11,566 nucleotides of DNA from a virus: UHGV virus genome UHGV-1588268; one strand, given 5' to 3'. The notes under the pieces were generated by a model, which was given only the letters and a program-made list of their open reading frames with translations, had not been told where the DNA came from and searched no databases. This document shows positions 5,539 to 8,422 of this stretch, one piece after another. The position numbers and the translations under genes are program-made. The first letter of the stretch is position 1, and every line of letters begins with the position of its first letter.

Positions 5539-6123
5539 TTATTGTTTGCTTTTTTCGTTCTGGTTGATGACAAATTCAATGTAACTTTCGATCTTTGCTT
5601 TCTCGGTTTCGGGTAACAATGCGTAGCGTGAGCGGTCATAGTTGATAGTCGCAGGGTCGTGCGGGTGAATCAGTAGTTCATATCCGTGACGCCCGAATGC
5701 GGATGCAACATTCTCCAGGGTGGAAATGGAAACGCTGACCTCATTGTTTAACAGGCGGCTGATTGTCACCTGGGCGACGCCGGATGCGCGGTGAAGTTTT
5801 CCCTGTGTTGAAAGGTCGCGGCTTTCGCTCATCCAGCGTTCCAGATTGTGAGCCGCCAGCTGACCTATATCGCTCGGGCCGACAGGCTGAAAACCCTCCT
5901 GAGAAAGCGAACGATCAATATCAAGCCAGTTACGGGGTTTATTGGCGGCAGCTTCAATTTTTCGTGCAACCTGGTCGCCGATAACCTTCTTGCCAAGAGC
6001 CCAGCGGTTTACCAGATTTGCCTGAGTTCCAAGTTTTTCTGCCATCCGCGTCTGAACACCATTGAATTCACGGTCGATCAAGTCGTTGAGATTTTGCCTG
6101 CGGACGTCCTGGATACTTTTCAT
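5539..6123 (-). CDS. Phage repressor candidate: tandem HTH (XRE/Cro-C1 type) DNA-binding protein, no S24 peptidase domain recognised
   Basis: 194 aa. Two HTH-like segments (QTRMAEKLGTQANLVNRWALGKK and KLHRASGVAQVTISRLLNNEVSVSISTLENVA). Divergent from a Cro-like gene with operator palindromes between them. C-terminal 45 aa show no Ala-Gly/Ser-Lys autocleavage signature. Confidence 0.75.
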   Translation of the reverse strand: MKSIQDVRRQNLNDLIDREFNGVQTRMAEKLGTQANLVNRWALGKKVIGDQVARKIEAAANKPRNWLDIDRSLSQEGFQPVGPSDIGQLAAHNLERWMSESRDLSTQGKLHRASGVAQVTISRLLNNEVSVSISTLENVASAFGRHGYELLIHPHDPATINYDRSRYALLPETEKAKIESYIEFVINQNEKSKQ

Positions 6124-6277: not shown

Positions 6278-6508
6278 ATGAGCGATAACGGACATTTCGA
6301 TTTCAAAAAGCACTGGCTTGCACTTACTCCGGATGAGCGTGAAGCCTTCGCACAGGAAGCCGGAACGACGAGTCACTATATCCAGACTCACTTAACAGGC
6401 AAGCGCAAAATGCCAGGTAAGGTATTGATGAATGGGCTTTTTAAAGCCTGTAAAACAAGACAATGGCTGCGCTCAAAAGCAGAACTGGCATACTTCTTCT
6501 ACTCATGA
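6278..6508 (+). CDS. Cro/YdaS-like small HTH regulator
   Basis: 76 aa, divergent from the repressor; EAFAQEAGTTSHYIQTHLTGKRKMP resembles the HTH and Gly-Lys-Arg turn of Cro/YdaS-family proteins. Confidence 0.65.
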   Translation: MSDNGHFDFKKHWLALTPDEREAFAQEAGTTSHYIQTHLTGKRKMPGKVLMNGLFKACKTRQWLRSKAELAYFFYS

Positions 6509-6530
6509 TATCCAGCTACAACCCTCTGTA

Positions 6531-6555
6531 GACCGCCACCCGGCGGTCTTTTCAT
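6531..6555 (+). terminator. Rho-independent terminator-like hairpin downstream of the cro-like gene
   Basis: Stem GACCGCC (6531-6537) / GGCGGTC (6542-6548), loop ACCC, then TTTTCAT. Short T-tract, so moderate confidence. Confidence 0.5.
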
Positions 6556-6578: not shown

Positions 6579-6656
6579 TAAAAAACCAAATCTGGTTGAT
6601 CAAATTTTCCAATTGTGCAAAATAGCCAATATCAATAACAAAAAGGGGCGGAAAAA

Positions 6657-6869
6657 TTGAAGATAGTAACCAGAATGGAGGCCGCAAAAGCCGGGTTAAA
6701 TCGCTATTTCACAGGAAAGCGGTGCCGTCACGGCCATCTCTCTGAAAGGTATGTTCTGAACGGAACATGTGTTGAATGTGCAATGAATAGCGCCAACCGC
6801 CATCGTAATGAATTTGCTTGTGCACTAAAGAGTGCAAGAGGGGAAACCTATGGCAAGCAGCTGGATTAA
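6657..6869 (+). CDS. Small Zn-ribbon-like protein (70 aa) in the cII position
   Basis: ORF with TTG start and AAGGGG ribosome-binding site (alternative ATG at 6675). Cys/His pattern C-x-H-x-H...C-x-x-C (GKRCRHGHLSERYVLNGTCVEC). Overlaps the start of the O-like gene. No family recognised. Confidence 0.5.
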   Translation: MKIVTRMEAAKAGLNRYFTGKRCRHGHLSERYVLNGTCVECAMNSANRHRNEFACALKSARGETYGKQLD

Positions 6870-7674
6870 GGTTGAAGTTATCACTCCTGATAAACCTGAA
6901 ATTTTTCAGATAGCAGAAATTCTGGGTATTGATCCAGATGCTGTTCTTGGAAAGCTGGTTCGTATATGGGCATGGGCTGACCAGCAAACAATAGACGGTA
7001 ACGCTGGCAGCGTTACAAAAGGAGTACTTGATAGACTCGCTTTTATTACAGGATTTGCTGACGCCCTCATTAGCGTCGGATGGCTTGCTTATCATGACGG
7101 CAAACTAATTCTTCCAAACTTTGAGCGACATAATGGAGAATCATCGAAAAAACGTGCACTTACGAATAGAAGAGTGGCAGAGCATCGAAAACGAGTAACG
7201 CAAAAAGTAACGCCAACAGCGTTACAAAAGGAGTTACCAGAGGAAGAGGAAGATATATATAAAACCCCACACATAGCGCACGTGCGCGAGGGTGCTCCGA
7301 CCAGTGAAGCGAACAGTACGCCGTTGCAGGTGGCAGAACCTGAATTTCTGGATGGCCTGAGTGAACCCATCGGGAAATTTCCGATGACAGATGGCTGGCT
7401 ACCGTCGCCAGATTTTCGGTGGCGTGCTGCGCTGTGGGGAACGGCCCTGCCGGAACCGGAATTTACACCTGCTGAACTTGCTGCATTCCGGGATTACTGG
7501 ATGGCTGAGGGCAAAGTGTTCACGCAGGTTCAGTGGGAACAAAAATTCGCCAGGCACGTAAATCATATCAGGGGAAAATCAAAAAATGCCGGGAAAAGCG
7601 ATGAGCTTGACTGGAATAACACTGACTGGATAGAAGGGGTGTGGGATGAAATCAACTCCAGAACTTCTCAATGA
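6850..7674 (+). CDS. Replication initiator, O-like: N-terminal phage replisome-organizer domain plus C-terminal DnaT-like domain
   Basis: N-terminus MASSWIKVEV...IWAWADQ fits the phage replisome-organizer N-domain. C-terminus (GKFPMTDGWLPSPDFRWRAALWGTALPEPEFTPAELAAFRDYWMAEGKVFTQVQWEQKFARHV) aligns closely with E. coli DnaT as I remember it. AGAGGGGA ribosome-binding site. Confidence 0.8.
   Translation: MASSWIKVEVITPDKPEIFQIAEILGIDPDAVLGKLVRIWAWADQQTIDGNAGSVTKGVLDRLAFITGFADALISVGWLAYHDGKLILPNFERHNGESSKKRALTNRRVAEHRKRVTQKVTPTALQKELPEEEEDIYKTPHIAHVREGAPTSEANSTPLQVAEPEFLDGLSEPIGKFPMTDGWLPSPDFRWRAALWGTALPEPEFTPAELAAFRDYWMAEGKVFTQVQWEQKFARHVNHIRGKSKNAGKSDELDWNNTDWIEGVWDEINSRTSQ
6998..7234. repeat. 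Iteron-like repeats inside the O-like gene (candidate origin): GTAACGC-N5-GCGTTAC-AAAAGGAGT twice
   Basis: Copy 1 at 6998-7025, copy 2 at 7207-7234, plus an extra GTAACGC at 7195-7201 and CATCGAAAA(A)ACG direct repeats at 7143-7196. The two copies fall in different reading frames of the O-like gene. An A/T-rich tract follows at 7243-7262. Confidence 0.4.
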
Positions 7675-8422
7675 GTACGATCGCTTACGTGAGCATGGTG
7701 TTGCTGTGCATGAAGAGCGGCGTGACAGCAATGGCAAAAAGGAGCAGGTTGCTAGAATTTTCAATGAACTATTTGTCCAGTTACAGGCTGCATTTCCTGC
7801 AAGCGTTTCGACCATAAGGGAGCAGAACAAACTTAATGAATTCCGTAAGCAATGGATGCTTGCGTTTCTGGAGAATGGGATCACTACAATGGAACAGGTT
7901 AACGCTGGTATGCGCCACGCCCGCGCCAGTGAATCTCCGTTCTGGCCGTCGCCAGGGCAATTCATCAAGTGGTGCAAAGACAGCAAGATGGTTCTTGGCG
8001 TCACCATTGACGATGTGATGGCGGAGTTTCACCGGTACAGCAAGGAAAAAAGTTTATATCCTGGTGGTCCCGAAAGATTCCCGTGGCGGCATCCGGTTAT
8101 GTACTGGGTCGTATGTGATACCCGTCGTGCAATGTATCAGCGCCAGCTTAGCGAGAGTGAGGTTGAGAAACACGCGCGCAGGCTGCTCGATGATTGGGCG
8201 AAAAAGGTGGCTTCCGGACAGCAGATACCCGATCCGGTGATCAGCATACAGGCAAAGCCAGAGCCCATGAGTACACCTCCGGACACAGGGAGAGACGTTT
8301 ACCATCCACCAGGGCGAAGTTTCGGGTGCATGCCTAACGCCGCCACCCTTTGGGGAATAACACCGGCGCAGTGGCTGATGGAGGAATACAGGCGGGGAAA
8401 GGCGGCAGGATTTATCAAGTAA
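7646..8422 (+). CDS. Replication protein P-like (DnaB helicase loader)
   Basis: 258 aa. QLQAAFPASVSTIREQNKLNEFRKQWMLAFLENGITTMEQVNAGMRHAR...FWPSPGQFIKWC matches lambda P (ATFPASL...WVLAFRENGITTMEQVNAGMRVAR...FLPSPGQFVAWC) as I remember it. Overlaps the O-like gene end; AAGGGG ribosome-binding site. Confidence 0.88.
   Translation: MKSTPELLNEYDRLREHGVAVHEERRDSNGKKEQVARIFNELFVQLQAAFPASVSTIREQNKLNEFRKQWMLAFLENGITTMEQVNAGMRHARASESPFWPSPGQFIKWCKDSKMVLGVTIDDVMAEFHRYSKEKSLYPGGPERFPWRHPVMYWVVCDTRRAMYQRQLSESEVEKHARRLLDDWAKKVASGQQIPDPVISIQAKPEPMSTPPDTGRDVYHPPGRSFGCMPNAATLWGITPAQWLMEEYRRGKAAGFIK

Follow-up and report, generated by a model that had tools for sequence, protein, structure and literature searches.

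The region described here lies within the replication initiator gene (6850-7674) of the virus genome UHGV-1588268, of which one stretch of 11,566 nt (11.5 kb) was analyzed; this stretch is called the window, and coordinates are positions in it. Our results suggest that positions 6998-7264 form the core of a prophage replication origin embedded in the initiator gene, a reading to which we assign a probability of about 0.7, since frame-independent conservation and a specificity that co-varies at both sites fit binding sites of the encoded initiator. The best reading is that of an initiator-binding origin core with an adjacent unwinding tract, which would be analogous, not homologous, to the origin of phage lambda (oriλ), and replication would presumably start in this region. 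An origin had been proposed at this place by an earlier, sequence-only reading, and the comparative evidence (frame independence, co-varying specificity and an oriλ-like layout) supports that interpretation.

Repeated sites within the initiator gene

The elements present in the window are the following:

6998-7016: site 1, perfect 19-bp palindrome GTAACGC-TGGCA-GCGTTAC, read as G-N-A-G-S-V-T
7195-7201, plus strand: additional half-site GTAACGC in direct orientation, 12 bp before site 2
7207-7225: site 2, perfect 19-bp palindrome GTAACGC-CAACA-GCGTTAC, read as V-T-P-T-A-L-Q
7231-7238, minus strand: trailing half-site GAGTTACC, degenerate GCGTTACC, oriented as the right arm of site 2
7239-7253, plus strand: 15-nt purine tract AGAGGAAGAGGAAGA, local form of the family-wide AGAGAAGAGAAGAG... 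tract, read as EEEED
7253-7264: 12-nt A/T-only run ATATATATAAAA, candidate unwinding start, where similarity to relatives stops

The unit GTAACGC-N5-GCGTTAC-AAAAGGAGT occurs twice in the gene, at 6998-7025 (GTAACGCTGGCAGCGTTACAAAAGGAGT) and 7207-7234 (GTAACGCCAACAGCGTTACAAAAGGAGT), and the two 28-nt copies agree at 25 of 28 bases, all mismatches being in the N5 spacer. These positions, as well as that of the third GTAACGC at 7195-7201, had been given correctly by the sequence-only reading, which had also stated that the copies lie in different frames and encode different amino acids; this was confirmed, since copy 1 (GNAGSVTKGV) starts at the second position of a codon and copy 2 (VTPTALQKEL) at the first, thus the 28-nt repeat is not a protein repeat. 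Two elements had been overlooked, namely a degenerate half-site at 7231-7237 (GAGTTAC), the fourth one, and the purine tract conserved at 7239-7253. The second cluster therefore reads GTAACGC-5-GTAACGC-5-GCGTTAC-5-GAGTTAC, with two rightward and two leftward half-sites at a 12-bp period (7195-7237).

None of 200 shuffles reached two matches to GTAACGC-N5-GCGTTAC with up to two mismatches (0.03 expected), and five of the six GTAACGC heptamers of the window fall in the 228 bp of 6998-7225. At the same tolerance, the palindrome was found in the 44.8-kb genome of Escherichia phage TL-2011b at these two places only. The repeats had been located in the linker of the initiator, which holds for the second cluster and the following A/T run (7195-7264), while copy 1 is inside the N-terminal domain (N-domain), at amino acids 50-56, in a low-confidence loop. 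Likewise, an A/T-rich tract had been proposed at 7243-7262; a purine/A+T tract is indeed present, but the pure A/T run covers just 12 bp (7253-7264) and comes after the purine run of 7239-7253. The duplex free energy of 7234-7263 was -33.7, compared to a window mean of -42.0 (standard deviation 3.4), placing this segment among the 12 least stable 30-mers, not as the lowest one.

Direct repeats of the form CATCGAAAA(A)ACG had been noted nearby as well, and we rejected them as a functional element: CATCGAAAA at 7142-7150 and 7183-7191 is a 9-nt exact match, chance alone would give about three pairs of this kind in 1.3 kb, and the repeats show ordinary third-position drift in close relatives. Terminator-like calls on the minus strand were obtained at both palindromes because of a hairpin plus an A-run; a terminator role was also discarded, as no T-runs are conserved beside the sites and what the sites have in common is sequence and not just structure. 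About 12 bp past the A/T run there is a perfect 12-bp palindrome, GCGCACGTGCGC (7276-7287), which loosely recalls the palindrome located right of the λ A+T-rich region and is not kept in TL-2011b (CACACGCGCGCG) or in phage BUCT554.

Conservation among close and distant relatives

The close relatives comprised 80 viral-contig loci (N-domain 88-100% identical) and three phage records, which yielded 49 distinct 405-nt sequences without indels. Among these, 95 of 102 degenerate third positions outside the elements varied, versus 12 of 28 inside 6995-7025 and 7195-7250 (Fisher p = 3e-8). The longest invariant runs of the N-domain sequence were both arms of site 1 (6998-7007 and 7009-7017), the right arm of site 2, GTTACCAGA and GAAGAGGAAGA; positions 7233-7241, which overlap the trailing half-site, were invariant, and 7243-7253, in the purine tract, formed the longest invariant run. 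The arms of site 2 were kept and its N5 spacer varied. The half-site at 7195 was not kept, most of these sequences having GAAACGC there.

Phages BUCT554 and ST11-OXA245phi3.2 (Klebsiella phage) matched the window over 6850-7253 only, with 80-84% nucleotide identity. Ungapped similarity was lost at 7246-7253 in 60 of 68 distinct relatives, and its upstream loss fell exactly at 6850, the start codon, in 45 of the 68; an Actinobacillus phage matched the window at 7255-7573 only. The C-terminal domains (C-domains) of relatives sharing the boundary are DnaT-like, yet far more diverged (44% amino acid identity for BUCT554, compared to 93% for its N-domain). Since similarity stops at both edges and the C-domains diverge more, 6850-7253 appears to behave as one exchangeable mosaic module made up of the N-domain coding sequence and its embedded cis elements.

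To extend the comparison, an N-domain profile search of contigs, one genome per species, provided 51 distant loci with 37-85% amino acid identity, including Samsonia, Pantoea, Shigella/E. coli, Pectobacterium, Pseudomonas, Ralstonia, Achromobacter, Akkermansia, Verrucomicrobiota and Planctomycetota. The elements were found in Enterobacterales, Pseudomonas, Burkholderiales, Xanthomonas phages, Akkermansia/Verrucomicrobiota and Planctomycetota, and about 40 of the 51 loci have the palindrome (up to two mismatches) at the same two gene positions. Site 1 was located at +148/+151, always in phase 1, and at +160 in a Rac-like group having a 12-nt insertion just upstream; site 2 was located between +337 and +395, with phases 0, 1 and 2 all represented. 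Exact half-site hexamers reached 10.1 per kb between -60 and +460 of the gene and 0.37 per kb in the flanks, a 27-fold difference. Extra direct half-sites spaced 11-12 bp were common, and (G)CGTTACC followed site 2 after 4-6 nt in nearly all of these loci. That relatives keep the repeats despite synonymous drift, a check suggested along with the original proposal, was thus strongly borne out, both in close relatives and across phyla.

The remainder of the 3.4-kb distant loci contained no further palindrome, apart from the Rac-like and Pantoea ones, which have a third copy at -32/-44. This third full palindrome is just upstream of the initiator start codon, likely in the ribosome-binding site region (L086, L088, L135 and L142 at -32, L085 at -44), and it suggests autoregulation besides origin function in those relatives. 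The chromosome of the planctomycete Stieleria magnilauensis (NZ_CP036432.1) carries two loci (L090 and L091, at 7.98 and 8.02 Mb), ~44 kb apart and with identical site sequences, which may be tandem prophages or a duplication. Only two plasmid records contained the N-domain, E. coli pE16EC1016-8 (L145) and a plasmid of Pusillimonas sp. T7-7 (L146); both are circular, 41-52 kb in size, non-mobilizable and rich in phage genes, and may be phage-plasmids or circular phage genomes. They were uninformative on autonomous replication.

Codon choice was evaluated in loci selected by the protein motif GNAx[SG]VT, so that the test was not circular. The Gly codon of the motif was GGT in 17 of 18 loci (the same codon is used in 25% of cases elsewhere in the N-domain), Asn was AAC in 18 of 18 (58%), Ser was AGC in 15 of 15 (21%) and Val was GTT in 18 of 18 (40%). 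The Thr codon, just beyond the palindrome, was unconstrained (ACA 9, ACC 7, ACG 1, ACT 1). The elements are shown to be under selection at the DNA level, independently of the reading frame. The Ala codon following GTAAC in site 1 (window position 7005) was GCT in 15 of 18 distant loci; since the first spacer base is usually T, the recognized half-site may be the 8-nt GTAACGCT.

Five half-site classes were distinguished: GTAAC, GTCAC, GTTGC, GTCCG and GTAGA. Besides that of the window, they take these forms:

GTCACGC-N5-GCGTGAC: L121, L124, L125, L132 and others
GTTGCGC-N5-GCGCAAC: L108
GTCCGC...GCGGAC: phages epsilon15 (L137) and phiPSA1 (L140)
GTAGACG-N6-CGTCTAC: Ralstonia phage Raharianne

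In all 33 loci with two perfect palindromes (25 GTAAC, 4 GTCAC, 2 GTCCG, 1 GTTGC and 1 GTAGA) the arms were identical at site 1 and site 2, with N5 spacers differing within the locus. The trailing half-site switches with the class (GCGTGACC, GCGCAAC or GCGGACC), and the encoded motif tracks it too (GNAxSVT, GHAxxVT, GCAPSAT); because the encoded residues follow the DNA class, the GNAxSVT "motif" is best seen as a by-product of the DNA site. In the GTCCGC class the first palindrome is located at +65 (amino acids 22-28) and not at +148, which indicates that, in the course of evolution, site 1 shifted to another part of the N-domain and neither site 2 nor the purine tract moved. In epsilon15 (L137, 342-1511) and in a Vibrio phage (L141, 504-1508), the first part of the initiator gene contains the end of a gene for a C-5 cytosine methyltransferase; as the half-sites contain CG, methylation of the sites is conceivable.

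A half-site plus a AGAGAAGAGAAG-type purine tract was present after site 2 almost everywhere. The order was the same in all classes: site 2, 4-6 nt, a half-site ending in CC, the AGAGAAGAGAAGAG... tract (14-33 nt) and an A+T-rich stretch, which in distant loci consists of 30 nt of 60-80% A+T right after the tract. In 41 of 57 loci, some of them from hosts with 32-40% A+T, the purine run at +330 to +480 was longer than any other on both strands of the locus. Its 5-nt unit yields cyclic permutations of EKRRE in every frame, which explains the "EKRREEK" stretch seen in protein alignments. A test of Arg codons within the tract was discarded as circular, the tract having been defined as purine-only; where the run lies and its maximum length across the locus served in its stead. 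Given that the tract is constant across classes while the half-sites change, it would either be recognized by a conserved part of the initiator or act via a physical property; we favor a role as the unwinding element.

The initiator protein and the weight of alternative explanations

The initiator open reading frame (ORF) begins at ATG 6850 and encodes an N-domain (amino acids 1-~120), a linker and a DnaT-like single-stranded DNA (ssDNA)-binding C-domain (amino acids 177-247). The C-domain matched Pfam DnaT (PF17948, E = 2e-17), and DnaT chains of the PDB matched amino acids 163-249, i.e. the C-domain only. The full-length DnaT equivalog model of NCBIfam, PRK02854, scored 88.8 bits versus a cut-off of 201, with the match confined to amino acids 169-250; a full-length DnaT (primosomal protein I) equivalog was rejected on these grounds. 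No Pfam or NCBIfam model matched amino acids 1-135, which belong to PHROG 2509 (E = 4e-75) in a family that also spans PHROG 9474, "replication initiation protein". This family has 7,207 representatives of 50%-identity clusters at E <= 1e-3 and 4,877 at E <= 1e-10; among the best 145 representatives, 99 have GNAxxVT and 92 an E/K/R run, mostly permutations of EKRRE.

An AlphaFold2 model of the N-domain displayed four helices, a β-hairpin and a long basic helix, a predicted fold compatible with a winged-helix-like DNA binder. The predicted local distance difference test (pLDDT) score was below 50 for amino acids 49-53, encoded by site 1, and 119-135, encoded by site 2 and the tract; on that basis the protein probably tolerates the residues dictated by the DNA at both sites.

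Regarding the factor that binds the sites, among 60 distant loci with the architecture a small upstream ORF was present in 4, a DnaT C-domain in 6 and a P-like gene in 7, so the N-domain alone co-occurs with the sites and would be their binder. The neighbor of the initiator is always a replication gene, with DnaC-like or DnaB-like genes where the P-like one is replaced. YdaU of the Rac prophage of E. coli K-12 MG1655 has a DUF1376 N-domain and no GTAACGC sites, and shares its C-domain with the YdaU of a Rac-like phage. YdaU of the Rac-like phage E. coli 442/2 (L135, 1228-2016) and that of K-12 (L136, 5120-5977) have near-identical C-terminal halves and unrelated N-domains, and this pair is a clean natural domain swap in a replication initiator.

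We propose that N-domain dimers would bind both 19-bp palindromes and that further subunits would occupy the flanking half-sites of 7195-7237, two rightward and then two leftward at the 12-bp period. The complex formed on site 2, which may be bridged to site 1 ~190 bp upstream, would destabilize the purine tract and the A/T run (7239-7264); the DnaT-like C-domain would then take the exposed single strand and recruit the host DnaB helicase carried by the P-like loader.

Several points weigh against an origin at this place. About 8 of the 51 distant loci are without a recognizable palindrome; the full sites are two in number, 190 bp apart, and do not form a tandem array; the A/T run measures just 12 bp, and several intergenic stretches of the window are less stable. 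A DnaA box, the IHF consensus and a GATC cluster were looked for near the elements and none was found, and our literature search found no experiment on any member of this replicon type. Finally, initiator-binding sites could serve autoregulation instead of initiation. The palindromes would then be operators through which the initiator or another phage regulator acts on the replication operon, as an autoregulatory roadblock or by translational control, with the origin located elsewhere. Plasmid Rep autorepression does use dimer-type inverted repeats, and the third palindrome of the Rac-like loci could affect a ribosome-binding site or a promoter. However, both sites of the window are well inside the coding sequence and none is at a promoter, and autoregulation explains neither the constant linkage of site 2 to the purine/A+T tract nor the mosaic boundary; we consider operators without a local origin quite unlikely, the two roles not being mutually exclusive. 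Hairpins are another way of reading the inverted repeats, either as mRNA structure or as ssDNA signals for primosome assembly or single-strand initiation, which would suit the DnaT-like domain. The folding energy of either palindrome as ssDNA is about -8 kcal/mol (z = -3.5 to -4.3) and there are compensatory changes in the arms; nevertheless, a hairpin needs complementarity and not identity, yet both sites and the unpaired half-sites share their sequence in each locus (33/33). This, together with a GTAACGC class that is the same in sequence across several phyla, the lack of a match in Rfam and a DnaT domain in so few of the site-bearing loci (6/60), makes hairpins a very improbable basis for the conservation.

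Binding by a factor other than the N-domain, either a protein of the host or the product of the small ORF at 6657-6869, seems highly unlikely. The small Cys/His-rich ORF overlaps the initiator start and is kept beside the initiator in BUCT554, ST11-OXA245phi3.2 and Samsonia, and ~1.2 kb upstream of it in epsilon15, but it is absent from 56 of the 60 loci with the architecture; as for a host factor, phages of enterobacteria that are close relatives do not share one site class (GTCCGC in Salmonella epsilon15 versus GTAACGC in E. coli TL-2011b and Rac-like phages), and the class tracks the lineage of the N-domain. The repeats might also lack any cis function, being a repeated protein motif, the product of gene conversion or "linker" sequences that merely promote recombination of modules, as the sharp mosaic boundary at 7253 and the presence of NAxSV(T) twice in the proteins of many relatives would allow. 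Against this, the copies of the window are in different frames and all three phases are represented at site 2, only the arms show fixed codons, gene conversion would homogenize spacers that in fact differ between copies, and the motif residues change with the DNA class, from N through H to C. This explanation is largely refuted by the analyses of frames and codons, and we give it hardly any credence.

Within the reading as an origin, the purine tract may have a part of its own. The palindromes and the near-universal AGAGAAGAGAAG tract could represent an old pan-bacterial class of phage origins that opens by a property of the tract itself, through an R-loop or triplex H-DNA; both versions are speculative and we regard the proposal as doubtful. 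In the former, transcription of the initiator gene would produce a purine-rich RNA forming an unusually stable R-loop on the pyrimidine template strand, and in the latter the tract would form triplex H-DNA under supercoiling. In either case initiator bound to the sites beside the tract would take hold of the displaced strand so that the helicase can be loaded, in the window by means of its DnaT-like domain, a module of the kind used by E. coli in R-loop/D-loop dependent restart. Constraints on the cis DNA would then be the cause of the most conserved motifs of the family, GNAxSVT and EKRREEK.

Genomic setting, significance and comparison with known origins

Positions 6600-7700 of the window are 98-99% identical to the left arm of Escherichia phages TL-2011b and vB_EcoP_ZX5. 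In addition to an integrase and recombination genes, the window contains the following genes around the elements:

5539-6123, minus strand: CI-like repressor
6278-6508: Cro/CII-like ORF
6657-6869: small Cys/His-rich ORF of 70 amino acids, PHROG 1081 (unknown function), with a 20-nt overlap with the start of the initiator gene
6850-7674, plus strand: replication initiator gene, 274 amino acids, PHROG 2509 "replication initiation protein" (E = 4e-126)
7646-8422, plus strand: lambda-P-like helicase loader gene, Pfam Phage_lambda_P (E = 5e-56), PHROG 109 "P-like helicase loader"

The end of the initiator gene and the start of the loader gene share 29 nt. At 6530-6549, ahead of the replication genes and right behind the Cro/CII-like ORF, a strong hairpin with a T-run (AGACCGCCACCCGGCGGTCT TTTCATATCT) resembles a terminator, therefore rightward transcription into the origin region may require antitermination or a separate promoter.

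If our reading is correct, it would pin to the nucleotide the origin used by thousands of related replicons, a family that spans Uetakevirus-type phages (epsilon15/TL-2011b), Rac-like prophages of E. coli/Shigella, phages of Xanthomonas, Ralstonia and Pseudomonas, and prophages of Akkermansia and Planctomycetes. The five half-site classes would offer natural specificity variants for the study of initiator-DNA recognition, and a conserved purine tract helping to open origins in very different hosts would be a testable idea. It would also be a case in which a cis element dictates conserved residues of the overlapping protein, which calls for caution when conserved "protein motifs" of phage initiators are interpreted. 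Possible uses are in annotating origins, in phage engineering and in designing phage-derived vectors. No description of these elements and no published origin for the family were found in the literature, in a search that left most subscription journals outside, so an earlier description is possible.

Iteron plasmid origins (RepA, π, TrfA) have repeated initiator sites by an A+T-rich unwinding element, where dimers bind inverted repeats and monomers bind single repeats. The window similarly has repeated sites beside an A+T-rich element, but no tandem 17-22-bp direct iterons or DnaA boxes, and its element is inside coding sequence. In plasmid systems, Rep proteins contact one strand of the DNA unwinding element (PMC4081077).

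DopC/DopE of Cellvibrionales include a protein with a DnaT C-terminal motif that is encoded beside a λ-P-like gene; DopC has an HTH_36 N-domain, and the authors found neither iteron-like repeats nor origin activity at dopC (Brezellec et al. 2017, PMC5509034). The initiator of the window resembles them in its DnaT C-domain and P-like neighbor, whereas its N-domain has no HTH_36 match, belongs to another family and carries strongly conserved sites.

Among Rac-like prophages and phages, "ydaU" of E. coli 442/2 and "O" of vB_EcoS-673R7 carry the N-domain (64-66% identity) and three GTAACGC palindromes, followed by a DnaC-like YdaV. Homology of the N-domain to K-12 YdaU (DUF1376) was rejected (BLASTP E = 1.0; hhalign aligned only the C-terminal tails of other family members). 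The published oriJ plasmids come from K-12 Rac YdaU; because it has a DUF1376 N-domain and no GTAACGC sites, the oriJ literature does not cover this type of origin. The oriJ primers of PMC3945230 map inside K-12 ydaV, and since K-12 YdaU belongs to another type they have no bearing on the elements described here.

With regard to phage lambda, the N-domain had been called O-like, a term that is adequate by position and analogy but not by detectable homology: there was no match to Pfam Phage_rep_O (PF04492), and hhalign gave a probability of 0.2% (E = 0.31), so homology to λ O was rejected. Moreover, where λ has four tandem iterons, the window has two palindromes separated by 190 bp and half-sites with a period of 12 bp, its site 1 is inside the folded N-domain and its C-domain is DnaT-like. 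Nevertheless, the layout recalls oriλ in several respects: the putative origin is embedded in the initiator gene, downstream of a presumed DNA-binding N-domain; sites of 18-19 bp with dyad symmetry are inside that gene (18 bp in the λ annotation, NC_001416); an A-rich purine tract directly follows the sites (AAAAGAAAAAAGAAAAGA in λ, AGAGGAAGAGGAAGATATATATAAAA in the window); and a recombination boundary is found just right of the tract, with a P-family loader gene coming next.

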